Origin: Armatimonadota bacterium | GTDB lineage: Bacteria > Armatimonadota > Hebobacteria > CAIYQO01 | Direction of reading: 5' to 3' | DNA: 64,000 nucleotides | NCBI GenBank assembly: GCA_029553475.1 | Contig: JAKPKV010000186.1 | Span: 7,808-71,807 of the forward strand | Shown here: in pieces, positions 12,231 through 56,106 of the stretch | Layout of the letters: each line of letters begins with the position of its first letter | Position numbering within the stretch: the first letter of the stretch is position 1 | The notes under the pieces: generated by a model | What the model was told of the DNA's origin: nothing | Seen by the model: the letters and a program-made list of their open reading frames with translations, nothing else | Database searches by the model: none | Translations under genes and position numbers: made by a program

Positions 12231-13231
12231 GCTGGCTCCTTTCGCGCGCCGGCGCGCAACGGCTCATACGCCACGTCCACGGCCTCGCCGCGCGCGGCGG
12301 AGGCGAGGATGGCCTCGTAGAGCACCATCGTCTTATAACTCTCGTAGATATTCGATCGCGTGGTGCGCCCCTCGCGCAGCGCGGCGAGAAAATCCACGAT
12401 CTCCGCCAGGTGCCCGGTATCGTTGCCGCTGTCACCCGCGCTGGTGAAGGTCGGCGGTTCGCGCCACTCGGTGCATACGCCGCCTTCCGTCACCCGCCAA
12501 GACGAGGAGTTATGCACCGTCATAAAATTGCCGCCGCGCGCGGTGATCTCCACCTCTTCCGTGGGAATGCTGAATGAGCGGCCATCAGCGAAGGTGAACG
12601 ACCCGACGGCCCCGTTGCGGAACCGCAGGCTGACGGCATACGCGTCAGGCCCTTTATCAAAGGCGAAGACCCGCGCCGCGTCGCCGAACAGATACCCCGC
12701 CAGGTCAATGACATGCAGGCAGAAGTCGAAGAGAAACGAACCGCGCAGCGTATCATTGGGGTATTGCGCCGCGCAATAATCGAAGGAAATGGCGTACAGG
12801 TCATCGGCCGGGAACCGGTCAATCCACGCCTTCGCGCGCGCATAGGCGGCGGCGTAGCGTTTCTTGAAGGCGGTCGTGCAGAGCACCCCGGTTTCTTCCG
12901 ACACCCGGGCGACGGCCAGCGCGGCGGCGGCGGACGGCGCCGGCGGCTTTTCCGTATAGACGGGAATGCCGCGGCGCATGGCCGCCTGCGCGAGCGTCGC
13001 GTGGCGATCCATGTCAATGCAGATGATGACGCCATCAGGCTTCTCGGCATCGAGCATCGTCTCCATCTCCTGGTAGACGGCGCCGCCGAAACGCCGGGCA
13101 TTGCGCTCGGCCTTCTCCCGGTCCAGGTCGCACACGCCGACCAACTCGGCGCCGGCCAGGCCGATGTAGGGATAAATGCGGCGGGAAGACAGGTTTCCCG
13201 CGCCGACGATGCAAAGCCGTGGATCAGACAT
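12227..13231 (-). CDS. Gfo/Idh/MocA family oxidoreductase
   Basis: N-terminal Rossmann CIVGAGNLSSRRIYPYIG; central EKP motif (VYTEKPPA). Confidence 0.75.
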   Translation of the reverse strand: MSDPRLCIVGAGNLSSRRIYPYIGLAGAELVGVCDLDREKAERNARRFGGAVYQEMETMLDAEKPDGVIICIDMDRHATLAQAAMRRGIPVYTEKPPAPSAAAALAVARVSEETGVLCTTAFKKRYAAAYARAKAWIDRFPADDLYAISFDYCAAQYPNDTLRGSFLFDFCLHVIDLAGYLFGDAARVFAFDKGPDAYAVSLRFRNGAVGSFTFADGRSFSIPTEEVEITARGGNFMTVHNSSSWRVTEGGVCTEWREPPTFTSAGDSGNDTGHLAEIVDFLAALREGRTTRSNIYESYKTMVLYEAILASAARGEAVDVAYEPLRAGARKEPA

Positions 13232-14667: not shown

Positions 14668-14900
14668 GCGGCACATAGTATCATGGCATGTAGTTGTACT
14701 GGGCCGTCACGTTGCACCTTGCTCTGTAGTCCGCGCCCTCCGCGGCGCGTGGTGACGCATTTTTACCCCGTGCCCGATGACGGTGGTGTCGGACACAGGT
14801 GCGCATGTCGGTCACACGCGCCGCGGAGGGCGCGGACTACCCCGGGCTGGTTTGCTACACAGAGTACACCGTGACAACCCGCGGCACGTAGTATCATGGT
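14668..14900. repeat. MITE-like palindromic repeat element (copy A)
   Basis: Flanked by near-identical direct repeats CGCGGCAC(A/G)TAGTATCATGG at 14668-14690 and 14879-14900. Internal 25-bp inverted repeat TAGTCCGCGCCCTCCGCGGCGCG / CGCGCCGCGGAGGGCGCGGACTA. Terminal motifs GTACTGGGCCGTCACGTTGCACCTTGC and GTGACAACCCGCGGCAC are shared with copies at ~9075, 18140 and 45313. Confidence 0.5.
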
Positions 14901-18139: not shown

Positions 18140-18470
18140 CTGCGTGTACTGGATCGTCACGTTGCACCTTGCCGCGTCCATCGTCGGGAACGCCGTCCCT
18201 GGCGTTCCGGTGCGCATTCTGTCGAGCCGCTCTCGGTCACCAGCAGACTCGCGCCCGCATCGGCCCACCCCTGCGGCGACCCGGAACGCCACGGAGGGCA
18301 TTCCCGACAATTAGGGGTTGGGGATGAGGGATTGGGCGCGCGCTACAGGCGGTTATCCTGATACGCACACGACAACGTAACGACCCCCTAACCCCTAATC
18401 CCCAACCCCTCACCCCGACCAGCGGTCGGTGCGCAGAGCACGAGACAGCGTGACAACCCGCTGCACTCTG
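18140..18470. repeat. MITE-like palindromic repeat element (copy B, larger) with internal G-rich/C-rich inverted repeats
   Basis: 5' end GTGTACTGGATCGTCACGTTGCACCTTGC and 3' end CAGCGTGACAACCCGCTGCAC match copy A termini. Internal TTAGGGGTTGGGGATGAGGGATTGGG is inverted as CCCCTAACCCCTAATCCCCAACCCCTCACCCC. Confidence 0.45.
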
Positions 18471-18547
18471 CGCACTATACCACAAATTCATGCGCATGCG
18501 CGAGGGGTGAAAAAGGAAACCGCCTCCCTTTCCGCGAAATGCAGTCA

Positions 18548-18748
18548 GCACGTTGATGGGTAACCGTTCAGTCTTGTCAGCATGATGTGGCGTCTGCCCG
18601 CCCACCTCTCCCCCCGCCCCTCCCCTGAGCGGGGAGGGGAGCACCGGATCTGCACACCCATCACTCCCCCTTCCCTCGCAGGGAAGGGGGATGGGGGGTG
18701 AGGTTTGGCATCAATCGGCGACATGCTGATAAGACTGAACGGTTACGT
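18548..18748. repeat. second-family MITE-like element with ~25-bp terminal inverted repeats, enclosing GC-rich hairpins, directly upstream of the next gene
   Basis: Left end CGTTGATGGGTAACCGTTCAGTCTTGTCAGCATG and right end CATGCTGATAAGACTGAACGGTTACGTTGATGG are reverse complements. The interior contains CCTCTCCCCCCGCCCCTCCCCTGAGCGGGGAGGGGAG, a solo copy of the 36945 hairpin repeat, and CCCCCTTCCCTCGCAGGGAAGGGGG. Confidence 0.4.
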
Positions 18749-18762
18749 TGATGGAGTTCACC

Positions 18763-21329: not shown

Positions 21330-21465
21330 GTCCCGATGAAATCGGGACGCATTTACCGGGGCCGCGGAGTTGTACTCCGCACGAGTGCCCTCACCCTGTC
21401 GTTGAACACAGAGCGTGCCAACGCGTGCGGAGTACAACTCCGCGGCCCCAGTGTCCCCCGGATTG
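21330..21465. repeat. cluster of three palindromes in the wrbA-hisI intergenic region (MITE-like)
   Basis: CGTCCCGATGAAATCGGGACG (21331-21351). A 26-bp perfect inverted repeat GGGGCCGCGGAGTTGTACTCCGCACG-N30-CGTGCGGAGTACAACTCCGCGGCCCC (21356-21440). A 16-bp perfect palindrome CCGGATTGCAATCCGG (~21447-21462). Shares AGTTGTACT and ACACAGAG with copy A termini. Confidence 0.4.
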
Positions 21466-36094: not shown

Positions 36095-36290
36095 GGGCAA
36101 ATCCTTCATTCAAGCAGTCTTGCAAAGCTTCGCCCTTCGGAGCCGAGTCCCTGCCGTTCCACGACATTGGGTTGTGGACCGTGCAGCCATCACATCATGC
36201 TGACGGGCGCGCCTATTGTCACCATTTCCCCTGCCTGGCCAGCGCGTTCTCCGCTACCATACCGGTATCACCATCCGAAAGGAGCGATCC

Positions 36291-36935
36291 ATGACGTTCA
36301 TAGCGAAAGAGTTCCCCTCGGTGCAGGGGGTGGACGGGCTGTCCCGGCGGCAGCAGGAGGAGCATTACGCGCTCTACACGGGCTACATCACGAAATGCAA
36401 CGAGCTGACGCGCAAGCTCCGCGAGGTGGACGTGAGCAAGGGCAATGCCACCTACGCTGACGCGCGGGAGATCAAGATCGAGCTGGCGTACGCGCTGGAC
36501 GCGGTGAAGAGCCACGAGCTCTACTTCGGCGCGCTGACGCAGGGCGCGGGCGGCACGCCGGTGGGCAAGACCGCCGAGTTCATCGAACGCGACTTCGGCG
36601 GTTTTGGCGCCTTCCGCGCGGAGATGACCGGCACGGTGATGAGCGCCCGCGGCTGGGCGTGGCTGGCGTATGACCGCTACGACGAGATGCTGCACATCTA
36701 CATCGGCGACACCCACCATACCTACCCCATCTGGGACGCCGCCCCCATCTTCGCCTTCGATGCCTATGAACACGCCTACTTCATGGACTACGGCACCGCG
36801 CGCGCCCAATTCATTGACGCCGTCTTCCGCAATCTCGACTGGAGCGTCATCGAAGACACGCTCCAGTGCGCCCTCCGCGGCGACGCGGTGACGAAAGCCC
36901 GCTGGGAACCGGGGGCGAGCGCGCAAGCGGCGTAA
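36291..36935 (+). CDS. Fe/Mn superoxide-dismutase-like protein (divergent N-terminal domain)
   Basis: C-terminal domain GWAWLAYDRYDEMLHIYIGDTHHTYP...FAFDAYEHAYFMDYGTARAQFIDAVFRNLDWSVIE matches the SOD D-x-WEHAYY pattern. The N-terminal His pairs are partly degenerate. AAGGAG RBS. Confidence 0.55.
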   Translation: MTFIAKEFPSVQGVDGLSRRQQEEHYALYTGYITKCNELTRKLREVDVSKGNATYADAREIKIELAYALDAVKSHELYFGALTQGAGGTPVGKTAEFIERDFGGFGAFRAEMTGTVMSARGWAWLAYDRYDEMLHIYIGDTHHTYPIWDAAPIFAFDAYEHAYFMDYGTARAQFIDAVFRNLDWSVIEDTLQCALRGDAVTKARWEPGASAQAA

Positions 36936-36944
36936 CGCGTTCGG

Positions 36945-37096
36945 TCACCGGGGGTCACCTCTCCCCCCGCCCCCCTCCCCTAAGCGGGGAGGGGGAGTGA
37001 GTTGAGATGCGAAAACGTGTTGTCTTCTCTCTCCGTTTCTCCCCCTCCCCGCTTAGGGGAGGGGGCCGGGGGAGAGGTGACCCCCGATGACGGGCT
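36945..37096. repeat. MITE-like hairpin element with ~47-bp GC-rich terminal inverted repeats
   Basis: GGGGGTCACCTCTCCCCCCGCCCCCCTCCCCTAAGCGGGGAGGGGGAG and its reverse complement flank a 41-bp spacer. A solo copy lies at 18604-18650. The element ends exactly at the pyr promoter -35. Confidence 0.45.
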
Positions 37097-37124
37097 TGAC
37101 GTCCCGCGCCCGCGTTGGTATAAT
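37096..37124 (+). promoter_or_regulatory. sigma70-type promoter of the pyr operon: TTGACG-N17-TATAAT
   Basis: Read directly: -35 at 37096-37101, -10 at 37119-37124. Confidence 0.55.
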
Positions 37125-37150
37125 GCGCTGACACTCGACCTTTTAACGGG

Positions 37151-38889
<1,739 letters not shown>

Positions 38890-38893
<4 letters not shown>

Positions 38894-43134: not shown

Positions 43135-44820
43135 ATGCCAAAGCGAACCGATCTGAAAACAGTCATGGTCATCGGCTCCGGCCCGATCGTCATCGGGCAG
43201 GCGGCGGAGTTTGACTACGCCGGCACCCAGGCCTGCCGCTCGCTGCGCGAGGAGGGCCTGTCCGTGGTGCTGGTGAACAGCAACCCGGCCACCATTATGA
43301 CGGACATGAACATGGCCGACCGGGTGTATGTGGAGCCGCTGACGGTGGAGTTCCTCACCCGCATCATCGCCAAGGAGCGCCCGGACGGCCTGCTGCCCAC
43401 GCTGGGCGGGCAGACGGGCCTGAACCTCGCCACCAAGCTGGCGAAGAAAGGCGTGCTAGACGAGTACCGCGTGGAGCTGCTCGGCACGCCGCTGGAGTCC
43501 ATCGAAAAGGCGGAGGACCGCGAGCATTTCAAGGCGCTGATGCAGGAGATCGGCGAGCCGGTGCCGGAATCGGCCATCGTCGAGCGCATGGACGAGGTGG
43601 AAGAGTTCCTCGACGAGCTGGTGCGCGTCGAGGCGAAGACCGGCCAGCCCGTCTACCCCATCATCGTGCGGCCTGCCTACACGCTGGGCGGCACCGGCGG
43701 CGGCATCGCCGACACCTGGGACGAGCTGCGCGACATCTGCGTGCGCGGCTTCCGCATGTCCATGACCTCGCAGTTGCTGCTGGAGCGCTGCCTGCTCGGC
43801 TGGAAAGAGATCGAGTACGAGGTGATGCGCGACGGCGCCGACAACTGCATCACCATCTGCAATATGGAGAATTTCGACCCGATGGGCATCCACACGGGCG
43901 ACTCCATCGTCATCGCCCCCAGCCAGACGCTCACCGATAAAGAGTACCAGATGTTGCGCACGGCGTCGCTGAAGATCATCCGCGCGCTGGGCATCGAGGG
44001 CGGCTGCAACGTGCAGCTCGCGCTGGATACCAACTCCTTCCGCTACTACGTCATCGAGGTGAATCCGCGCGTGAGCCGCTCCTCGGCGCTGGCCTCCAAG
44101 GCCACCGGGTACCCCATCGCCCGCGTGGCGGCGAAGATCGCCGTGGGCCTGCATCTGGATGAAATCCAGAACGCGGTGACGAAGCGCACGCTGGCCTGTT
44201 TTGAGCCCGCGCTGGATTACTGCGTGCTGAAGATCCCGCGCTGGCCTTTTGACAAGTTCAACTTCGCCAACCGCCGCATCGGCACGCAGATGAAGGCCAC
44301 CGGCGAGGTGATGGCCATTGACCGCACCTTCGCGGGCGCGCTGATGAAGGCGGTGCGCTCGCTGGAGATCGGGCAGCTCGGCCTGGCGATGAAAGGCATC
44401 GGCGAGTGGTCGGAGATGAAGCTGGAAGAGGTGCTGCGCCACGCCACCGACGAGCGCCTCGCCGCCATCTGCGAAGCCTTCCGCCGCGGCATGGACGTGC
44501 CCGAGGTGCGGCAGCTCACCAACGTGGACCCGTGGTTCCTGCGGCAGGTGAAAGACCTGGTGGAGTTGGAATTGGAGTTCCGCGCCCACTTCGGCCTGCC
44601 GGATGAAGCGATGCTGCGCCGCGCCAAAGAGTGGGGCTTCAACGACCACTACCTGGCCGAGCTGTGGGGCGTGAAAGAGGCGGAAATCCGCGACCTGCGC
44701 CGCCACTGGGGCATCCAGCCCGTCTACAAAATGGTGGATACCTGCGCCGCCGAGTTCGAATCGGAGACGCCGTATTTCTACTCGACGTACGACCGGGAGA
44801 ATGAATTGGCCGTGGTATAA
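43135..44820 (+). CDS. carB: carbamoyl-phosphate synthase large subunit, N-terminal half (carboxyphosphate domain plus oligomerisation domain)
   Basis: [34 protein letters not shown]... It ends [14 protein letters not shown] exactly at the boundary between the two homologous halves of full-length CarB. Confidence 0.85.
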
Positions 44821-45312: not shown

Positions 45313-45545
45313 GCATGCTGTAGCGGGTCGTCACGATGTACCTTGTTCTTCGTATCAACTCAAGCGTCTTGTAGGGAATGTCCCGCCGTGGCATTCCAGA
45401 AGCGGTGCGCGGTGGAGTCCGCGACCAAACGCTATCGTCCCGTGCAGCGTGCCGATTCGCGACGGTCGGGAATGCCACGGCGGGACATTCCCTACCAGCG
45501 CTGATACCGATGTCGCAGCCGTGGTTGCCCGCGGCGACACGGTTT
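45313..45545. repeat. MITE-like repeat (copy C) with a 27-bp perfect internal inverted repeat
   Basis: Terminus TGTAGCGGGTCGTCACGATGTACCTTG. Internal GTAGGGAATGTCCCGCCGTGGCATTCC is inverted as GGGAATGCCACGGCGGGACATTCCCTAC. 3' end CCGTGGTTGCCCGCGGCGAC. Confidence 0.4.
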
Positions 45546-45976: not shown

Positions 45977-47548
45977 ATGTCCGAGAAGCAACGCGTCATC
46001 GTCATCGGCTCCGGGCCCATCCGCATCGGGCAGGGAATCGAGTTCGACTACTGCTCCGTGCACTCCGTGTGGGCGCTGCGCGAGGAGGGGTACGAGGCGA
46101 TCATCATCAACAACAACCCGGAGACGGTCTCCACCGACTTCGACACCTCGGACGCCCTGTTCTTCGAGCCGCTCACCGTGGAGGACGTGCTGAATCTGAT
46201 TGACCAGGTGCAGCCGGAGGGCGTGGTGGTGCAGTTCGGCGGGCAGACTGCCATCAACCTGGCGGGGCCGCTGCACGCGGCGGGGGTGAAGATCCTCGGC
46301 ACCGACTTCCGCGGCATCGAGCTGGCGGAAGACCGCAAGCTCTTCGACGCGCTGCTCACCGACCTCGACATCGAGCGCCCGAAGGGCCGCGCCATCACGT
46401 CCGTGCCGGAAGCGGTGGAGGCCAGCCGCGCAATCGGCTTCCCGCTGCTCATCCGCCCCAGCTTCGTGCTCGGCGGCCGCGCGATGGAGATCGTCTACGA
46501 TGAAGAGCACCTGCGCCGCTACATGACCTACGCCGTGGACGTCGCGCCTGACCGCCCCATCCTGGTGGACCGCTACATCGTCGGCAAAGAGGTGGAGGTG
46601 GACTGCATTTCCGACGGCACGGACGTGCTCATCCCCGGCATTATGGAGCACATCGAGGCCGCCGGCGTGCACAGTGGCGACTCCATGTCCGTCTACCCGC
46701 CCGTCACCCTCTCCCGGCAGGTGAAGGATACCGTGGTGGAGTACGCCATGCGCCTCTGCCGCGGCATCGGCGTGGTGGGGCTGATGAACATCCAGTACGT
46801 GGTGGACGAGCACGACACCGTCTACATCATCGAGGTGAACCCGCGCGCCTCGCGCACCGTGCCCTACATGAGCAAGGTCACCGGCGTGCCGATGGTGAGC
46901 CTGGCCACCAAATGCGCCCTCGGCCGCACGCTCAACGAGCTGGGCTACGCGCACGGTCTCTATCCCGAGCGCCCCTACTTCGCGGTGAAGGCGCCGGTCT
47001 TCAGCTTCTCAAAACTCACCGAGCTGGACGTCTCCCTCGGGCCGGAGATGAAGTCCACCGGCGAAATCATGGGCGTGGACCCGTCCTACCCGCACGCGCT
47101 GTACAAGGCGATGGTCGGCTCGCACATTGACGTGCCGCTGCGCGGCTCGATGATCGCCACCATCGCCGAGCGCGACAAACCGCGCGCGCTGCCCATCATC
47201 CGGCGCTTCCGCGAGCTGGGGTTCAAGGTCTACGCCACCCGCGGCACCGCGCTTTTCCTCATCCAGCACGGCGTGGACGCGCAGAGCGTGGCGAAAATCT
47301 CCCAGGGCAGCCCGCACCTGCTCGACCTCATCCGCGAGGAGAAGATTGACCTGCTGCTGAACACGCTCTCGCCGGAGAAGACGGTGGAGCAGGAGGGCGC
47401 CCGCATCCGCCGCGCCTCGGTGGAGCACAACATCCCCTGCCTCACCTCCCTCGACACCGCCGAAGCCCTCCTCCTCGCCCTGGAAGCCCGCCGCGCCGGC
47501 GAAGATTTTGCCGTCTACGCGCTGGACGAGCTGCTGCAGATGGCGTAA
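45977..47548 (+). CDS. carB: carbamoyl-phosphate synthase large subunit, C-terminal half (carbamate-phosphorylation domain plus MGS-like domain)
   Basis: MSEKQRVIVIGSGPIRIGQGIEFDYCSVH ... with a C-terminal MGS-like region. It has its own GAGGA RBS 7 nt upstream. Confidence 0.85.
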   Translation: MSEKQRVIVIGSGPIRIGQGIEFDYCSVHSVWALREEGYEAIIINNNPETVSTDFDTSDALFFEPLTVEDVLNLIDQVQPEGVVVQFGGQTAINLAGPLHAAGVKILGTDFRGIELAEDRKLFDALLTDLDIERPKGRAITSVPEAVEASRAIGFPLLIRPSFVLGGRAMEIVYDEEHLRRYMTYAVDVAPDRPILVDRYIVGKEVEVDCISDGTDVLIPGIMEHIEAAGVHSGDSMSVYPPVTLSRQVKDTVVEYAMRLCRGIGVVGLMNIQYVVDEHDTVYIIEVNPRASRTVPYMSKVTGVPMVSLATKCALGRTLNELGYAHGLYPERPYFAVKAPVFSFSKLTELDVSLGPEMKSTGEIMGVDPSYPHALYKAMVGSHIDVPLRGSMIATIAERDKPRALPIIRRFRELGFKVYATRGTALFLIQHGVDAQSVAKISQGSPHLLDLIREEKIDLLLNTLSPEKTVEQEGARIRRASVEHNIPCLTSLDTAEALLLALEARRAGEDFAVYALDELLQMA

Positions 47549-47755: not shown

Positions 47756-50700
47756 ATGACACGACGGCCAGGGTGGCGCGGAGGGCTCCTGAGCGTGCTG
47801 CTGGTGGGAATGCTGTGTGCATACGCTCAAGAGGCAGCGCTGCCGCGCCCCCCGGACCCGCCCCCCCATCGCGATCACCCCCAGTGACGGCTTCAGCCTC
47901 GAAGTGGTGGACCAGACCACCCCGCACTACGTCATCGTCAAACTCACCTCCCCCGCGCACAACTGGCTCGCTGGCACCTTCACCCACCTCCCCACGGACA
48001 AAGACGTCACTATCGGCCTATCCATAGCCGGCAACGATACCAAGAGCAATGCCGCCGACGTGAAGAAGTGGCAGGGACTGGTGCCGGTGATGACCTACGC
48101 CGACCCGAAACAGTACGAGACCTACAAGTGGGATGCGCAGGGCCGATGGGTGAGCGGCGACCCCTTCAAGCAGGATGAAGCGAAGTACGCCGGCACTGGC
48201 AAAGTGCCAGCGCAGGCGGTCATTCCGAAGGATATGGCCGAGCAGTTCCTCTCGGCAGACGGGAAATACTGGTCTGCGTGGCGGGAGGTGGACACGGCAG
48301 AAGCGTTGCCGGGGATCAACGTCTTCCGCATCACCCAGCGCTTTGGCCAGGCCACCGCGACGGTGGCGATGCGGGTGCCCTACACCTATACCCGCGGCGC
48401 GCCCTGGGCGTCCGCGACGAAGACGCCGTCGGCCAGTACCGCCTGGAATCTGGCGACTACCACGGTGCCCTCGCCGGTCTACATCGAGGGCACGGGGGCG
48501 AGCAGCGCGGTAGGCGACCTGGAGGTGATCCTGCGCTACGCGAACGGGGGGACGACGACACAGGACGTGGTGAAGGCGACGGTGGTTGACGTTAACCTGG
48601 AGATCGAGGGCGTGGCGGACGCTGACGAGGAGACGGTCGGCGGAGTTGTCGGGAAAGGTGCCGGTCTGCTTCCGATCACCCTCTCGATTCCTGAGAGCTT
48701 GCGGACCGGTGTTGTCTCTTTGGAGGCGACCGCCGGCGGCACGCGGATTGAACTCTACGAAGATGCGGAAGGGACAACAGCGCTCCCGCTGGTGCCTGTG
48801 CCGACATGGAATCTGGCTAACCAAGAGGCCGTCTCGCAAACGCTCTATATCAACGGTGTCCAGGCAAGTGCCGCAATGCGCGATGCCACCCTTAAGCTGC
48901 GGTACGAAAAGGCTGGGCAGGCGGCGGAAGATTTCGTCAAACTCACGGTGGCGAAGATCGATCTCGTCATCCAGAATCTCGCTGAAGAAATCGATGCCGG
49001 AGGAAATCCCCCGCATGAGACGGATCCGGACGCATTTCTGCCGGCCAATACCGATGATGATAACGGTAATGGGATCGCGGATCATGCGGAAGTTGCCGTG
49101 TGGGACGAGGACCTACAGGTTGATCGCACGTATGTCGAGAGTGAAAATGACTTGGTCGCCCTCAAAATTGGAACCCTCCCCGTCGGGTCTACCGGCACGG
49201 TTACGTTGGCAAGCAGTAACGATAAGCTCGTCTTCTGGACATCCCCGAAGAAAGACAGCAAAGTGTCCGATACGCTGACGCGGACCTGGACGATCGGCGA
49301 CGAGAACGATCCGATACCGGATACGGTGTATGTGGAAGGGGTCGCCGTCAGTACAGCGGTGCGCGATACCGAGATTACGCTCACCTACACCGGTGCAGGC
49401 ATTACCGTTGCGGATGTCCTCAAAGTGACCGTGGTGCAGGCCGACGTCTCCATCCAGGAATGCACTGAAGCGAGTGAAGTGTCGCCGGGCGCCATTGTCA
49501 TGCTGAATCGGGAAGGCGATGACCTGGTGCCGATGACGCTGACCCTCTCCCCCTCGGGGGTCGATGTCGGGAAGCTCGGACTCACCATGAGCGGAGGCGT
49601 GAAGCTCTGGACCTCTTTGGCGAAGGAGGTAGAAGCGCCTGCGTCATGGACGCTCGCCCCCGGCGCACCCTTCACTGGCGCCACGTATTACGTCGAAGGT
49701 ACAGCGGTGAGTACGGCATTGCGAGACAAAGCTGTGTCATTCACCTATGCCGTCAATGAGAAAAAAGTGCACGAAGATATCGGCAAGGTGACGGTCGCGA
49801 ACCTCACCATCAGTTTGCCGGAGAAGGCACTGTATACGAATACTGATGATGATAACTTAAATGGTACGGATGACATAAATGACCCGGGAGAAGTGGCGGA
49901 TGAAAATGACTTGAAACAGCTCTTGATTAAACTCGAACCGGCTGGCTTAACGGGAACCCTCACGGTAGCAGTGAAAACGCTTGAGACGGAGAATAACGCC
50001 GGCGAAGACTATGATGCCGCACCGCGCGTCAATCTGACAACGCTGCCGAAAGTGGGCCAGCGGTTGTCGGAAACGCATACGTGGCAGAGACCGAACGACA
50101 CGTTTCCCACCGCGCTCTGGGTTGAAGGGAAGCGTGTCAGCGCAGACGAGGATGACCAGGAGATCACCGTCACCTACGAATACGGCGCATCTTCCCTCTC
50201 GTCAATCGCGCTTGCGACGGTGGAAGCGCGAATCGCAACATCAGAAGTGTGTTTCCGGCTGTACCAAATGAATGACAGTAACCCAACGGTTGCCTCACTG
50301 GCGACCCAGCCGGAGATAAACGCGGGCACGGTGGGAGATACCGTCGCGGTGGTCATGGAAGTGAAGATCGGCCCGGACAACCGGGTCGCGCGGGATGCCG
50401 AAGGCACGCTCCTCGCGAATGAGGTGCAAGTGCTGATCAAGGACCTGTGGGAGGGCTATGAGCCTGATAAGTCACGGGCACAGTGCGATCCGACTGTCGC
50501 GCTCGATTGGGCCTCCCGGTTGTCGGAATGCCAGAACGTGGGCACCCCACAGGCGAGCTGGAATGCCGGTGGCGACACAGCACCATCCGAAAGTAACCTG
50601 AATGCCGCGAAGCCACGCATCTTCCGCGCAATCGTGAAAAAGTGGGACACCCGGACCGGGCCGGGCGTGACGTATTTCAACGAGGCGACACAACAATGGA

Positions 50701-52607
50701 CGGGCTTCACGCCGACGATGGGGCATAACACAAAACACTCCATCAGTGTAATGGCGATTGATGGGGATGCGACCAAAACGAAAATTCCGTTCCAACAATA
50801 CACGGTGGCCACGGACGGGTGGGGCACAGCGACCGAGGTGGACGTGAAGGCCCGCGAAGTGGAGGTGAAGAACCTGGTGGTGTCGAATGTGAATGCCACT
50901 ACAGGTACTGTTGACTACTTGCGCTATGATCCGGACCCCGACAGTCCGTATCATCGCCCGAGGATAACTTTTTCGGTTGATGATACGGTGTTTCCACAAC
51001 CCGACCATACGTACAAGTATTGGGTGATGATTCAACCGACGAAGGATAGCGGAAAGGAATTGTTGGACTTAGATGATATCTATTCGTATGCCTATACGTT
51101 CGCACATGGTCAAATGCCACCTGTCGTGAGTGAGATAGAATGGGTAGGAACGGATAGCATGGATGGTGAACCGGATAGTGCGCAGCGGGGAACATATACG
51201 TATGATGTAGTTGTAGAAGAATGGGTAGGTTCAACGCTTATCGATAGGTTTGCTTATAAGTGGCCATACTGTTTGACAGTGGATAAACACGATACTTGGG
51301 TTGATACTCTTGATAGTGGGCAAGTCATGAAGTTTCATTATACATTGTACGATTACTGTTATTACGATACTACGTTACCAAATTCGAAACTTCACTCTCC
51401 TACAGGAGTAAACGTCATTATCATAGATAACGAGTTGAACGAACGGCAGCTTACAAACCTAATTGCTAATCCAAACGAGATAGGAAACCCTCATGATGGT
51501 GGTGGAGATGGGTTAGTCGCATATGAAGCGAGTGATAGTGAGGTTATTGGCACTTGGAGGATATTAATAACTGGTAGAGATGAGTGTTGGGTAGCATACA
51601 GACGCGACCACAATCCATCATTAATGTTGGCTGTTAACAAAGAGAGCTTGCTTCAAGCGATAGTGCTGCACCCTATACAAATCTTGACTTCTTTTCTCAA
51701 TTTTGATACAGGTGGTCCAGATTGGATAAGAAATCTTGAAGGTAATGCTATGGGGTTAGTAAATTTCACTGCGGGAACACTAGATGTAGCCCTCACGAAT
51801 GGGCCAGTAAGTAACGCAAATATTTTAGTTGTTTATTGTCGTAACCAAGCAATGAAAGATGCAGTAGTATCAGGCTTTGGCACAATTCGTAAACATGGTA
51901 TGAAAATGTACGTGTCGCAAGAGATAAATAAATTTACACAGACACTACAGCAATACAAAGTATGGGAAATTGAAGATCCGTATGTTTTCGGTAAGAGATT
52001 TATGGAGGCTGGTCTCACGATATACTCCCTTGGTCGAGGCGCACAAGGCTTAGCCAAAGCATCTCTTCCGCCAAGGGCTGCTGTGCAAGGAGCGCCGAAG
52101 ATCGTTGAATTGAAATCCGGCTCACCGTCTGCTGCAACTATTTCGGTAGAAGTCACAAATCAGTTTCTTGCAGCAAGGGAGACAGCAGCACTAATGCGCC
52201 TCCCAAGCTATTATATTAGACTCTATCAAGCATGGACGTCGCCTAAAGGATTAGTATATACGAAAGCGTTAATTCGAAGAGGGAATAGCACACTGATTGA
52301 GTGTAGAGTAAAGCATGTATCAGTTGATCACTCACATGAATATGGTCTGCCAGGTAAAACATATTTCAAGTGTCCGCAAAAAGAAATTTTATCTGTCGTT
52401 GACAGGGCGTGGGAAAGAATCGTTATGAAAGATCCAGCAGTTAAGAAAGCGGTCGAAGGAGGACGAATAAAATATGAGATGAAACTCGGGTCAGGAACGG
52501 ATCATATCGGTACGGGAGGAGAGCAATGGATACAGATCATTGTTGAAGGTGAGTATGAAAACCTTCTCGTCTCAGCTTATCCGATACCTGTACCATCAAT
52601 ACCATAA
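47756..52607 (+). CDS. giant secreted tandem-repeat protein. Signal-peptide exon (47756-47887) is out of frame (-1) with the main ORF (47817-52607) at a poly-C tract. C-terminal ~500 codons sit in AT-rich DNA: candidate polymorphic-toxin-like or adhesin-like protein
   Basis: ATG at 47756 encodes MTRRPGWRGGLLSVLLVGMLCAYAQEAALP (signal peptide), then stops at 47885. Deleting one C in C6 (47848-53) or C7 (47861-67) reads through into ...IAITPSDGFSLEVVDQ... Body has ~120-aa repeats (YVEGVAVSTAVRDTEITLTY...DVLKVTVVQADVSIQ) and Asp-rich NTDDDNGNGIADH motifs. GC falls from about 65% to about 40% after ~50.9 kb. Confidence 0.55.
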
Positions 52608-52630
52608 CTTTTATATGGAGGTATTGCAAC

Positions 52631-53848
52631 ATGATATGTCCCTATTGCGAAATTGGACTGATCAAATGCATTCAACCAGAAGCACAGACTTCGATTGAGT
52701 CATCTGCATTTGAGTGCGGCAACTGCGATACTTGCTGGGCGACGATCACAGATCTTCTGAATTTACGTCATTTACGACCGCACGAATCAGCATTGCTCGA
52801 CAAATTATTGCACCAAGAAGCCTCGTTGGGATCACGAGATGTATGGTTTGAAAAAGCCGAAGAACGACGTTTCATTCATCTCGAACTGTTCGCGCAACTA
52901 CGTGAAGAGAATACCGAGCATGTCAAGCGTCTGATTCGTAAAGAAGACGGCGATGTCACAGATGAATACTACCGTACTGCCTTACATATTGCAGCACAAA
53001 AAAACATGTATGTAATTGTTGAGATGATACTGACTCATCAGCATGTCAGTATCAATGCAACGGATGATTATGGGTATACCCCTTTGCATTACGCGATGTG
53101 GCATGACAATACGGCGTTATATGATCTGTTGTTGAAACACGGCGCAGACTTGAATGCTCTGACACATAATGGTGATACTCCACTCATGACAAAGACATAC
53201 CAATGGGGGGATTATCAGCAATCATCTGTAAAATATTTGCTGAAAAAAGGCGCGGAAGTATCGCATGTTAACAAAGATGGACAGACAGCATATTCTTATT
53301 CGGTCATGCGAAACAGATATGACATTGCTAGTTTACTGGAAGGACATGGCGCTGCCATATTTCTACAGAATATATTTGGCATTACTCCCCTCCACTATGC
53401 CACGCGGCATAACTCACTCGACTTGGCTTACTTCCATATACAAAGAGAGCATCCAGCACAAGTTGTCAATAACGCCGGTAATACTCCGCTATATAATACG
53501 CTACTTGTTAAAGAATTAGTTCGCATAGGATTAGATGTCAATCATAGAAACAAGGATGGACAAACGCCACTGCACTATGCGGCACGATGGAATGCAAGTA
53601 ATACTCAATATTTGGAAATTCTGATTGCAAACGGGGCCATTGTGAATGCGACGGATTATTACGGATATACTCCCCTTCACTTAGCTGTACTAAACTCGTA
53701 CTACCCTGATTCTACACGATTGCTACTGCAGCACGGTGCCGATAAATTTGCAAGAGATGTCTGGGGACGAATGCCTTTGGACCTGCTACTTCAGCATTGC
53801 ACGGATACTGGAAGGCGTGAAATGTTTATCAGCCTGCTATCATGGTGA
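52631..53848 (+). CDS. ankyrin-repeat protein with N-terminal CxxC-x16-CxxC zinc-ribbon-like motif; candidate immunity or effector partner of the giant protein
   Basis: N-terminus MICPYCEIGLIKC...CGNCDTC. Multiple ANK repeats (TALHIAAQKN, TPLHYAMWHDNTALYDLLLKHGADLN, TPLHYATRHN, TPLHYAARWN, TPLHLAVLNS). GGAGG RBS. By eye about 40% GC. Confidence 0.75.
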   Translation: MICPYCEIGLIKCIQPEAQTSIESSAFECGNCDTCWATITDLLNLRHLRPHESALLDKLLHQEASLGSRDVWFEKAEERRFIHLELFAQLREENTEHVKRLIRKEDGDVTDEYYRTALHIAAQKNMYVIVEMILTHQHVSINATDDYGYTPLHYAMWHDNTALYDLLLKHGADLNALTHNGDTPLMTKTYQWGDYQQSSVKYLLKKGAEVSHVNKDGQTAYSYSVMRNRYDIASLLEGHGAAIFLQNIFGITPLHYATRHNSLDLAYFHIQREHPAQVVNNAGNTPLYNTLLVKELVRIGLDVNHRNKDGQTPLHYAARWNASNTQYLEILIANGAIVNATDYYGYTPLHLAVLNSYYPDSTRLLLQHGADKFARDVWGRMPLDLLLQHCTDTGRREMFISLLSW

Positions 53849-53952
53849 AACGAATGTAACTACTCCGGGTAAGCATCCGGTTCTGCCGGGAAACTCCAGC
53901 AGTTTGACAGTTGTGGGAACGGTATGAAGTTCACATACGGGAGACATGACGG

Positions 53953-56106
53953 ATGATTACGAAACCATTGTTCATAATTGCGCTATTATTCACACTCGGT
54001 AGTATCGTACATGCGCAGCAAGTCAGGCCGACAGACCGACCATTCGACGGAAAATCGCACGTGGACTACCTGACCGCATGGTCAAAAACGCCGGATGCCG
54101 GCGCGGCTGCGCTGCTCGACTGCGCGCAAATCGCCATTGCCGCTGATAAGACACAGAACTGGGACAGCGCGCTGATGGCGGAGATTCGCAAGGCATTGGC
54201 CGCTAATCCATTGGCGCTGGCACGACTTGACGCCTTTACGCAACTGCTGGGCGGTGACACGGCCGGGGCCGCGGCCCTCTTTGCGACACGGCAAAACGAG
54301 CCGGGCACGCGGGAAGCCACGACCGTGATTCGCTGGTTGCGCGGGTTTGACTACCCGCTGGCGGCGGATGCCGTGGAGGCCTTGACCCGCGACCTCACGA
54401 AAGCGCGCCTGATCGCCTGGCTGCGCATCCCCAAGGAGAAACGCGGTCCGATTGATGAGAACATGCTGCAGCGCTATCTGCCCAGCAGCATGAACCGGCG
54501 CGCCCTGGTGGAAATCGCCCTGAACCTGTATGCGGCCCCCCCGCCCGATTGCGGTCTGTCAGCGATTGATTTCCTGGAGTTCGCCGTCTGGTTCGGCAAA
54601 GACACCGGCCTGCTCACCTTGTCGCCTGCCGATGATCTGGCGTCGCGACGGCAATTTCAACCCGCCATCCTATATGCCCAGCGTCTTGCGGCGGTATATC
54701 CGACTGATTACCGATTGCAGCGCGTGATCTGTAGATTTTTCACAGAATGTGGGGATCGTCCGTCCGCAATCACACGCTATCAACAACTGCTCGCTGCCGA
54801 CCACGAACCTTACGTGCGCGAAGTGCGCCTCGATTATCTGGAGCGTCTTCGCACCGGATTCCTGAAACCGGAAAACGTGACGCTGGCCGGCATGCAGCAG
54901 GACGCCAATCCGCTGTGCGCCGGGGATGCGCTGCTGGTCGAGAAGAAGTATCCCGAAGCGGCGGCACAGTATCGCAAGGTATTTCAGGATGCCCGCGCGC
55001 CCCTGCCGCGGCGCCTTTCTGCCTGGACGGGGTTGCTGGACAATGAGCCGGCGTGGGCATTAGAGCAGGCGGATGCGCTCTTCACCGCGCTTGACGCGGC
55101 ACAAGCCTTGCCCGATCGCGCGGCGCTCGTCGTCTGGACCGGGTGGCAACTGGCGCGCATCACGGAACGCGAAATACCCCTTGCCTATGGCGTGCGGGAG
55201 GCGACCCGCCTGGAATACATCCCCGTCCCGACCGTCGAGGGATGGACAGCGCGGCTATCGGCCTTGATGGATCGGGTGGTCGCGATGGATCCGGTCGCCT
55301 GCTTGAAAACCGGCAACGTGGATCAGCCTTCTTTGCGGTATTCGGCCGCCCTCATCCATGCGTTGACCGGGAACATGAAGCAAGCCGATGCCGTCGCGAA
55401 ACAGGAAGTCACCTACATGGCTCCACCGCCACCGGGCGGCTGGTTCACCTTCCCCGGCACGCCGGATAAAGACGCGGACAAACCGCGTCAGCAGAAGAGC
55501 CCCGTCCCCGGCGAGCGCGAACAGCTCATGGCGAAATTGACGCCCGCCGTCGGCCGCTTCTTTGAAGCCGCGGTGAAGGAGCCCACCGCGAAAATCCCCC
55601 ACAGTCCGCCGAACCTCGAACTCATCTTTTCCCTGGCCTCGCGGGTGAATGTCGTCGAAATCCCTCATCAGCGCACGGCGAATATCCAGGAATTTGCCCG
55701 CCAGTTCATGTTGGCGATTGAATATTTAGACCCCAAACAGCGCAACCTGAGCCTGAAAAACCCGCCGCCACCGCCGCGGGAGGTAGATTTTTTACAGGTT
55801 GCATCGTTACGCACCGCCATCAATGTGGCCTTCAAACCCGATGGGGCAGCTAAAGAGGCGGTTCCCTTCGTGAAAGAAGGCCTGCAGGAAGCCATGCTCA
55901 TCGCCAGCAACCCGCGGTTGCTCAGCGAGCTCTGCGGGATCACCTTATTGGTGATTGACCGGTATGGCGAGGCGCTACAGGATACAAAGCTCGCGGAAGG
56001 GCTGGCGCATAACGTGGCGAAGTGGCTGGCCATCCGTGAAGTCTATGATATGCGCCCGTATGTGACGCGATTGCGAGAGCACTATACACCGCCTGACGCG
56101 GAATGA
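53953..56106 (+). CDS. hypothetical secreted alpha-helical protein
   Basis: Signal peptide MITKPLFIIALLFTLGSIVHAQQ. 717 aa, Ala/Leu-rich; no recognisable catalytic motif. GC returns to background. Confidence 0.45.
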   Translation: MITKPLFIIALLFTLGSIVHAQQVRPTDRPFDGKSHVDYLTAWSKTPDAGAAALLDCAQIAIAADKTQNWDSALMAEIRKALAANPLALARLDAFTQLLGGDTAGAAALFATRQNEPGTREATTVIRWLRGFDYPLAADAVEALTRDLTKARLIAWLRIPKEKRGPIDENMLQRYLPSSMNRRALVEIALNLYAAPPPDCGLSAIDFLEFAVWFGKDTGLLTLSPADDLASRRQFQPAILYAQRLAAVYPTDYRLQRVICRFFTECGDRPSAITRYQQLLAADHEPYVREVRLDYLERLRTGFLKPENVTLAGMQQDANPLCAGDALLVEKKYPEAAAQYRKVFQDARAPLPRRLSAWTGLLDNEPAWALEQADALFTALDAAQALPDRAALVVWTGWQLARITEREIPLAYGVREATRLEYIPVPTVEGWTARLSALMDRVVAMDPVACLKTGNVDQPSLRYSAALIHALTGNMKQADAVAKQEVTYMAPPPPGGWFTFPGTPDKDADKPRQQKSPVPGEREQLMAKLTPAVGRFFEAAVKEPTAKIPHSPPNLELIFSLASRVNVVEIPHQRTANIQEFARQFMLAIEYLDPKQRNLSLKNPPPPPREVDFLQVASLRTAINVAFKPDGAAKEAVPFVKEGLQEAMLIASNPRLLSELCGITLLVIDRYGEALQDTKLAEGLAHNVAKWLAIREVYDMRPYVTRLREHYTPPDAE

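Follow-up and report, generated by a model that had tools for sequence, protein, structure and literature searches.

In the DNA of an uncultured Armatimonadota bacterium, of which a stretch of 64,000 nucleotides was analysed (GenBank assembly GCA_029553475.1, contig JAKPKV010000186.1, positions 7,808 to 71,807; in the following, the window), the interval between a SOD-like gene and the pyr genes is occupied by a GC-rich inverted repeat at 36944-37091, here referred to as the doublet, which raises the question of what kind of element this is and whether it serves the genes beside it. The initial annotation had proposed a bidirectional terminator or insulator, or else a MITE (miniature inverted-repeat transposable element) that delivered or displaced promoter context. 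The analysis reported here points to a different answer, according to which the doublet is likely an inverted pair of triplex motifs of the kind known from Escherichia coli as BoxC, while at its locus, as judged from sequence comparison, it most probably rides along as a passenger that is tolerated there and does no work for the SOD-like or pyr genes.

Anatomy and folding of the doublet

The doublet consists of two arms of ~48 nt (36944-36994 and 37041-37091 in the repeat search of the window), which are separated by a 41-nt spacer and each of which contains a 10-bp hairpin. A 34-nt arm core (36964-36997 and 37039-37072, 41 nt apart) possesses a complementarity of 97%, and the palindrome CCCCTCCCC-TAAGC-GGGGAGGGG was identified three times in the window as compared to 0 times in 100 shuffles, whereby two copies locate to the doublet and the third, carrying one mismatch, to 18617-18639. 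The RNA fold of the doublet region was calculated at -133.7 kcal/mol (z -13.7) and the DNA fold at -69.5 kcal/mol (z -11.6); with z-values of about -12 to -14 the inverted repeat is real and far beyond chance, and its initial description as an inverted repeat with a palindrome of its own in each arm is borne out. It does not extend to the exact first base of the pyr -35 element, as had been stated: 37091 is the last position of the repeat and 37085 that of its core, i.e., 4-10 nt before it. Within each arm the order is C-arm, loop, G-arm, 2-3 nt and G-rich flank, the arm ends being GGGGGTCACC and GGTGACCCCC. At gathering score, Rfam identified three tRNAs in the window and no family over the doublet, for which by E-value only sub-threshold microRNA-hairpin matches were obtained that are taken as generic long-hairpin hits; an Rfam scan of 18 related loci likewise revealed no match over the units.

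The G-rich flank and the triplex rule

In an antiparallel purine-motif triplex the third block is a mirror repeat, in which G is faced by G, and A by either A or T (G*G.C, A*A.T and T*A.T). The ITxF definition of a class II motif (Holder 2015) requires a Y arm, a loop, an R arm, a second loop and a reverse-Hoogsteen block on one strand, with a stem of 6-15 nt, at most one mismatched triad and loops of 1-6 nt. A re-implemented ITxF-style scan (stem 9, at most one mismatched triad, loops 1-6) identified four such motifs in the window, at 37042-37077 (+), 36958-36994 (-), 18605-18639 (-) and 18656-18688 (-), and none in 40 Markov shuffles of it, so the blocks do stand in the order that ITxF prescribes. 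Within the right unit of the doublet, the third-segment A faces that of the R arm, and one A*G.C mismatch is present.

The flank was then considered independently of the motif scan, using 399 C-arm/G-arm hairpins gathered without any flank requirement from a comparison set of about 250 related loci (L numbers below) from several phyla. The arm was modelled as G(m)-A-G(n) and the flank following it as G(p)-[A/T/C]-G(q). Here p was found to track n (Spearman +0.43, p 6e-7), with a mean p of 2.7, 3.7, 4.3 and 4.5 for n = 2 to 5, and q to track m (+0.32, p 3e-4), while among the asymmetric arms 31 are followed by a mirror flank, 3 by a direct one and 8 by neither. Facing the arm A, T was counted 85 times, A 35 times and C 5 times. 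Examples are the G-arm GGGGGAGG with the flank GGAGGGGG, GGGGAGGGA with AGGGTGGGG, GGGGGAGGA with AGGTGGGGGG and GGGAGAGGG with GGGTGAGGG. A direct-repeat or alternative-hairpin model of the flank is ruled out, as it yielded negative correlations. Going by these comparisons, the flank mirrors the G-arm and follows the purine-motif intrastrand triplex rule. G-quadruplex folding of the G-rich blocks would be an alternative, yet it appears as a competing fold and not as the organising principle: the quadruplex motif is weaker in the Armatimonadota-type flank and in the hairpin A variant of the window (Table 1), and the mirror position of the A or T is not predicted by it.

Relation to BoxC, PIT and TMECO elements

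The BoxC repeats of E. coli (Bachellier) were subsequently described as PIT elements (Hoyne and Maher 2000) and later as TMECO (Holder et al. 2015), with the consensus CCCTCNCCC-N3-6-GGGNGAGGG-N3-GGGNGAGGG, a class II purine-motif intrastrand triplex (PMC4666352). TMECO elements are intergenic and without strand bias, have no associated transposase and also occur as inverted pairs, five of which were reported, each joining a TTA-loop unit to a CCG-loop unit; as single-stranded DNA they form a stable triplex in vitro and block DNA polymerase in vitro, and their loci show raised between-strain variability, whereby palindromic pairs lose small parts and keep the hairpin (PMC4666352).

At the level of kind the doublet belongs to this class. 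Like TMECO, the GGGGAGGGG-type family, as the relatives of the doublet are called here, is intergenic, multi-copy and without strand bias, forms frequent inverted pairs, carries second loops of TTA or CC(G) type, shows no transposase gene beside its copies and is locally unstable, with deletions that leave the hairpin. The common plan comprises a C-arm of 9-10 nt, a loop of 3-6 nt, a G-arm, a loop of 2-3 nt and a mirror G-block. A close counterpart of the window arrangement is provided by the lldD-trmL spacer of E. coli MG1655 (L251), where an outward-facing doublet likewise lies between two co-directional genes, its first unit being CCCTCACCC-TAA-CCCTCTCCC-TCA-GGGAGAGGG and its second, after 59 nt, CCCTCGCCCC-TCC-GGGGAGAGGG-CCG-GGGTGAGGGG.

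The two are nevertheless not identical. The blocks of the window units are CCCCTCCCC, GGGGAGGGG and GGGGGAGAGG as compared to CCCTCNCCC, GGGNGAGGG and GGGNGAGGG in TMECO, and in Alphaproteobacteria and Chloroflexus the third block is GGGGTGGGGG, again unlike that of TMECO. Since the literal TMECO consensus has 0 matches in the window, the window element is a sister variant and not TMECO proper; literal matches were found in E. coli (L251) and in L021, L046, L071 and L253, with TMECO and GGGGAGGGG-type units residing in the same 8-kb stretches in L021, L046 and L071. The host of the window belongs to the Armatimonadota and is no proteobacterium, and, unlike in TMECO, entire doublets that keep their 41-nt spacer are encountered again at unrelated loci. 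Moreover, the arms of the window doublet are near-identical, while the E. coli pairs join a type A and a type B unit; the window copy at 18.6 kb does combine two unit types. That such elements exist, that they come in pairs and that no function is obvious for them was known before; what is new here is a GGGGAGGGG-type variant distributed over several phyla, a covariation test of the triplex rule that starts from hairpins, and evidence that whole doublets with conserved spacers occur repeatedly. The BoxC/triplex-motif class, characterised mainly in E. coli, has a GGGGAGGGG-type sister family, hosts of which are Alphaproteobacteria, Chloroflexota, Planctomycetota, Gemmatimonadota, a cyanobacterium and this Armatimonadota bacterium. 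The hairpin-first covariation constitutes comparative evidence for a constraint on triplex-forming ability itself, which the E. coli work left unsettled in vivo.

Several points have to be held against the assignment of the doublet as a pair of triplex motifs. The copies are related by kinship, and the p-values given above overstate their independence; where n exceeds m, the tendency towards mirroring is weak, with 4 mirror, 3 direct and 5 neutral arms, and the third block of either doublet arm has a single mismatch, A facing G. The alphaproteobacterial unit fits a four-tract quadruplex motif perfectly, and the window itself contains two loci of the family. Finally, a stable triplex was documented by circular dichroism and nuclear magnetic resonance for E. 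coli TMECO only, and dimethyl sulphate footprinting in E. coli detected no stable triplex in vivo (PMC4666352).

When single-stranded, a unit may fold into a hairpin, the major groove of which would take up the third block by G*G.C, A*A.T and T*A.T triads. Such a structure would have the purine-tract mirror repeat and the reverse-Hoogsteen triads in common with H-DNA, from which it differs in that one DNA strand supplies all three triplex strands by double fold-back; because this strand folds back twice, the motif needs single-stranded DNA, and a supercoiled duplex is insufficient. With units on opposite strands and third blocks facing outward, the whole doublet may also fold or extrude as one long hairpin. 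Whenever the DNA is transiently single-stranded, be it during replication, repair or transcription, each strand could fold one unit or the doublet as a whole could form a hairpin, and folding of this kind would both constrain the sequence and promote slippage, deletion and copying.

Distribution and forms of the family

The doublet was initially held to be a dispersed repeat, with restriction of the motif to two sites of the window as the finding that would speak against it, and dispersed it is. A scan of species-representative genomes for CCCCTCCCC-N5-GGGGAGGGG returned at least 119 stretches, among the listed matches of which are Rhizobiales, Caulobacterales, other Alphaproteobacteria, Chloroflexus, Anaerolineae, Planctomycetota, Longimicrobiaceae and a cyanobacterium. 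Among these matches the common unit is CCCCTCCCC-CTTGY-GGGGAGGGG-TTA-GGGGTGGGGGT, the flanks are non-random, inverted unit pairs 70-150 bp apart are frequent, and the alphaproteobacterial units have variable ends. Metagenomes scanned with the pattern of the window-type arm, CACCTCTCCCCC-N1-5-CCCCTCCCC, yielded at least 120 stretches, and the forms among the matches listed include doublets and single units, elements collapsed to one long hairpin (L180, L188), tandem arrays (L199, L189, L173, L133), two-type doublets made of a GGGGAGGGG and a GGGAAGGGGG hairpin (L144, L237, L243), subfamilies with far longer terminal repeats (L164, L166, L225) and sharp-ended GC-rich doublets within AT-rich genomes (L135, L204, L219). 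Of viral contigs, 4 of 2.9 million match the arm pattern. A literature search by sequence returned no papers for the exact unit strings and solely unrelated eukaryotic matches for CCCCTCCCC and GGGGAGGGG.

A second full copy of the doublet was identified at an unrelated locus (L138), with the same arms, a spacer differing at 2 of 41 positions and unrelated flanks (BLAST, 91.5% identity over 129 nt). Both of its loops are changed together, TACAC and ATGTA replacing TAAGC and GCTTA of the window copy. In the 28 outward doublets with equal-length loops, the two loops are complementary with a mean identity of 0.87 (20 perfect), as compared to 0.455 and 10% perfect for loops taken from different elements. 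Since the loops are complementary, doublets evolve as units, for which the arm-to-arm hairpin, or repair templated by it, matters. Outward and inward pairs are about equally represented (34 and 33). L138 originates from the same digester study as L002 and L005, and the CCGG-linker subfamily, to which the window copy belongs, was found at other loci with similar read coverage (L131, L136, L159, L180), suggesting, without proving it, several copies in one population. Some members of the family have spread as whole units.

The genomic context was assessed with crude gene calls based on GC content at third codon positions (GC3) at 172 high-GC loci. Of 87 elements, 46 lie between co-directional, 30 between convergent and 11 between divergent genes, as compared to an intergenic background of 63%, 20% and 17% (chi-square about 10, hand calculation). 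About a quarter of the grouped elements fall inside crude open reading frame (ORF) calls, which is taken to reflect over-extended starts. Single units downstream of a gene are C-flank-first in 16 and G-flank-last in 15 cases, indicating no strand-specific RNA role; single-unit orientation showed no significant relation to local GC skew (Fisher p 0.18), at the low power that 8-kb loci afford.

The family also affects assemblies. One metagenome contig of the JGI digester type (L001) is 100% identical to the window over 20.6 kb. In another (L002) pyrR is joined, exactly at the left end of the doublet, to DNA unrelated to the 64-kb window (L002 1-1337); here the genome may really be rearranged, or the assembly may have been joined, as a possible chimera, by way of another copy, while a fold-back artefact of assembly was rejected, as reverse-complementing the right flank does not yield the left one. 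Two further contigs (L003, L004) break inside the element. This repeat family thus breaks metagenome assemblies and marks rearrangement junctions (L002-L004), which calls for caution with metagenome-assembled genomes, where chimeric contigs are possible.

The SOD-pyrR interval

The doublet starts 8 nt past the stop codon of the SOD-like gene (36216-36935, Sod_Fe_C, + strand) and fills the gap up to the pyr promoter, which was correctly recognised from the beginning by its -35 element TTGACG (37096-37101) and which in addition comprises a 17-nt spacer with TG, a TATAAT ending at 37124 and a PyrR leader downstream, followed by pyrR, pyrB and a gene for a dihydroorotase-like amidohydrolase. The SOD-like gene and pyrR, which had been called convergent, are both on the + strand and hence co-directional. 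Comparison with relatives, ordered by identity of PyrR, revealed what stands upstream of the -35 element in place of the full doublet: at 90% (L256) at least 55 nt of unrelated sequence followed by the contig end, at 87% (L125, L126) the right-hand unit only, with the loop ATCTA, at 84% (L127) a different, imperfect C-rich/G-rich hairpin and then TGTTTTCT, at 76% (L249) no such unit, and at 74% (L250) an unrelated inverted-repeat element. TTGACG-17-TATAAT is nevertheless kept in relatives of 84-90% identity (L125, L127, L256, which lack the doublet), L249 and L250 possess TTGACA-17-TATGAT, and the PyrR leader is kept in all relatives compared. Because promoter and leader are conserved regardless of what precedes them, the doublet did not bring the pyr promoter, nor does the promoter need the doublet, and the initial idea of promoter context delivered or displaced by the element is not supported. 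Taken alone, the locus represents an ordinary passenger repeat beside a conserved promoter, and a place between the SOD stop codon and the pyr promoter may be what allows the doublet to be tolerated.

With regard to the interval in relatives, L250 carries at 3640-3840 an unrelated long inverted or direct repeat (GTAAGGTGTGGAAGGCACACTCTCAGTCTGGAAGG...) upstream of the pyr promoter, and the spacer before this promoter seems to collect repeats in several lineages. In L125, gene-end C-rich/G-rich hairpins of the same composition were observed at 196-215, 1377-1400 and 12307-12327; two have T-runs and resemble ordinary terminators, and that at 12307-12327 has a G-rich mirror-like flank. A conventional terminator read by eye in L127 is not relied on, as the scanner made no call.

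Alternative explanations

The alternatives considered are not all mutually exclusive with the assignment as paired triplex motifs. One of them holds that the doublet is a transcription element selected by the host, whose hairpin ends or pauses SOD transcripts, protects their 3' end and insulates the pyr promoter. The placement of the doublet between SOD stop codon and promoter and the extreme stability of its RNA fold are consistent with this idea, as are the C-rich/G-rich hairpin with TGTTTTCT at the same place in L127 and the family's enrichment between convergent and depletion between divergent genes. However, neither hairpin of the doublet is followed by a T-run as required of an intrinsic terminator, and a terminator scan of 36500-37500 made its sole call at the PyrR attenuator (37220-37240) and none in the doublet, just as the L127 hairpin was not called. 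Together with the co-directional genes and the balanced orientation of single units (16 vs 15), this also leaves the bidirectional terminator proposed initially unsupported, while an insulating or pausing effect is still conceivable. Furthermore, the closest relative (L256) carries unrelated sequence beside the same promoter, enrichment at gene 3' ends is equally expected of any tolerated insertion, and E. coli PIT elements were reported to possess neither promoter nor terminator activity (PMC4666352, citing Maher laboratory follow-up). A host-selected transcription element is therefore regarded as unlikely, while the chances are considered even that the doublet is without significant transcriptional effect at the pyr locus.

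A further possibility is that doublets are active non-autonomous mobile elements, the single-stranded fold of which would be recognised by a putative mobilising or copying activity. This would explain why the mirror rule is kept across phyla and many sequence variants, as well as the sharp-ended GC-rich copies in AT-rich genomes and the recurrence of doublets with conserved spacers and loops changing in concert; the suggestion is nonetheless put forward as a doubtful one. A reading in which the doublet is a REPIN, i.e., a pair of inverted repetitive extragenic palindromes (REPs) mobilised by a RAYT (Y1/HUH transposase), is rated somewhat lower still. Like REPINs and bacterial interspersed mosaic elements, the doublet consists of inverted palindromic units, each arm holding a palindrome, which pair into a single long hairpin, and is multi-copy, intergenic and evolving as a unit; whole doublets with conserved spacer reside at unrelated loci, no target-site duplication is apparent, as expected of HUH enzymes, and the element ends GGGGTCAC fit the GGGGWSAS motif of the inverted repeats flanking TIRYT genes (Di Nocera et al., PMC3733652). 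On the other hand, the mirror-repeat third block has no counterpart in REPs, and REPIN pairing leaves this constraint on the flank unexplained. A conserved GTAG/CGTC tag by the hairpins was not found, CGTC being present on a single side, within reverse-complemented GATGACGGGC, and the E. coli relatives have no transposase nearby (PMC4666352). No ORF with HUH...YxxxNP was found with two regular expressions among six-frame ORFs of the window and 1.7 Mb of element-bearing loci, a weak negative because such genes number one or few per genome.

Least probable of all is a classical MITE, i.e., a deletion derivative of an insertion sequence (IS) moved by a DDE transposase that binds the arms as terminal repeats, for although the doublet is short (<200 bp), non-coding and dispersed in multiple copies with terminal inverted repeats, sometimes nested in other repeats, with sharp boundaries in AT-rich hosts, much longer terminal repeats in the L164, L166 and L225 subfamilies and outer repeats of its own in the 18548-18748 element, no target-site duplication or flanking direct repeat was found at the window copy, L138 or the copies in AT-rich hosts, no parent IS or transposase gene was seen next to any of the copies, half-elements are frequent, as are collapsed hairpins and tandem arrays, unlike in DDE-type MITEs, and what is conserved across phyla, inside otherwise unrelated elements, is the same 35-nt structural module and not transposase-specific termini.

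Features of the window and the composite repeat

The coordinates of the doublet, of the pyr control region and of the second family element of the window are compiled in Table 1.

Table 1. Positions of the doublet, the pyr control region and the composite repeat in the window (a point denotes a feature without strand).
Feature	Positions	Strand	Basis and details
Left-arm outer extension GTCACCGGGGGTCA	36944..36957	.	Pairs with 37078-37091; inverted-repeat search, RNA and DNA folds
Left unit, class II purine-motif triplex motif	36958..36994	-	ITxF-style scan: stem 9, 1 mismatch, loops 5 + 5
Left unit, Y arm	36986-36994	-	Reverse complement of these positions
Left unit, loop 1	36981-36985	-	
Left unit, R arm	36972-36980	-	Reverse complement of these positions
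Left unit, loop 2	36967-36971	-	
Left unit, third (reverse-Hoogsteen) segment GGGGAGAGG	36958-36966	-	Reverse complement of these positions
Local hairpin 1, CCCCCTCCCC-TAAGC-GGGGAGGGGG, 10-bp stem	36971..36995	.	Sequence, pattern search
Inter-arm spacer, 41 nt	36998..37038	.	Repeat search; kept in second copy at unrelated locus L138
Local hairpin 2, CCCCCTCCCC-GCTTA-GGGGAGGGGG	37041..37065	.	Loop is the reverse complement of the hairpin 1 loop
Right unit, class II purine-motif triplex motif	37042..37077	+	ITxF-style scan; stands alone at the orthologous site in L125, L126
Right unit, parts		+	Y arm CCCCTCCCC; loop GCTTA; R arm GGGGAGGGG; loop 2 of 4 nt (10-nt register: 2 nt, CC); third segment GGGG(G)AGAGG
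Right-arm outer extension TGACCCCCGATGAC	37078..37091	.	Inverted-repeat search
pyr promoter: TTGACG, 17 nt with TG, TATAAT	37096..37124	+	Adjoins the doublet, not part of it
PyrR-binding attenuator leader	37135..37244	+	RF00515, 50.6 bits, E 5e-6 (gathering score 54); terminator-like hairpin 37220-37240, then T-run; context only
Composite repeat, about 190 bp	18548..18748	.	Fold, triplex scan; second family element in the window
Composite unit B	18605-18639	-	Triplex scan
Composite hairpin A, CCCCCTTCCCT-CGC-AGGGAAGGGGG	18666-18690	.	Fold; sequence differs from unit B
Composite G-flank GGGGGGTGAGGT	18693-18704	.	

The arm copy at 18604-18645, initially taken for a solo arm, is in fact half of a complete two-hairpin module with an outer stem. 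In this composite repeat, a triplex-motif doublet of two unit types is framed on the outside by ~40-nt terminal inverted repeats (ACGTTGATGGGTAACCGTTCAGTCTTGTCAGCATGATGTGGCG...), with a middle stem formed by ACCTCTCCCCCC and GGGGGGTGAGGT and two local hairpins. Copies were identified at L226 1872-2058 (93%) and L130 2656-2839 (91%), with the match confined to window positions 18557-18750; since the flanks of L226 and L130 are unrelated, the composite is a dispersed family of its own.

Further repeats and genes of the window

Two further inverted repeats were observed at 18180-18311 and 45368-45498 (arm length 33-36 nt, spacer length 60-65 nt), which have arm motifs GGGAAYGYC ... GGCATTCCC in common, are pairwise 73% identical by column and probably form another MITE-like family. 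The former is adjoined by an inverted repeat at 18313-18410 with telomere-like G-rich/C-rich arms (AGGGGTTGGGGATGAGGGATTGGG and CCCTAATCCCCAACCCCT), three different repeat elements hence being packed within 18180-18748. Elsewhere, a perfect 26-nt inverted pair 63 nt apart resides at 14726-14840, 45-nt arms 8 nt apart at 21355-21452 and 26-nt arms 19 nt apart at 1859-1929.

Concerning the pyr genes, the annotated pyrR ATG (37218) falls within the loop of the attenuator terminator hairpin (37220-37240), and the true start codon may lie further downstream, e.g., the GTG at about 37244. The PyrB ORF (37799-38893, aspartate carbamoyltransferase) has a C-terminal PyrI_C match (residues 323-361, E 1.7e-6), i.e., to the zinc domain of the regulatory chain, an architecture that according to precomputed data is shared by close PyrB homologues. 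Named PyrB homologues that are 53-73% identical bear the label Armatimonadota, and the one at 91% is called "bacterium ADurb.Bin429". Two separate genes encode the large subunit of carbamoyl-phosphate synthetase, at 43135-44820 and 45977-47548 (L001 15918-17603 and 18760-20331), with a nucleotidyltransferase gene (NTP_transf_2), a small ORF and a Dabb-domain gene in between and a HepT-like and a NUDIX gene immediately upstream of the first half. From about 48000 to 55000 a low-GC island extends (GC 0.44-0.50 at 50-54 kb vs about 0.65 elsewhere), and at about 49.7-56.1 kb no ORF of at least 90 codons displays the high-GC3 pattern of the host; the island is probably foreign DNA.

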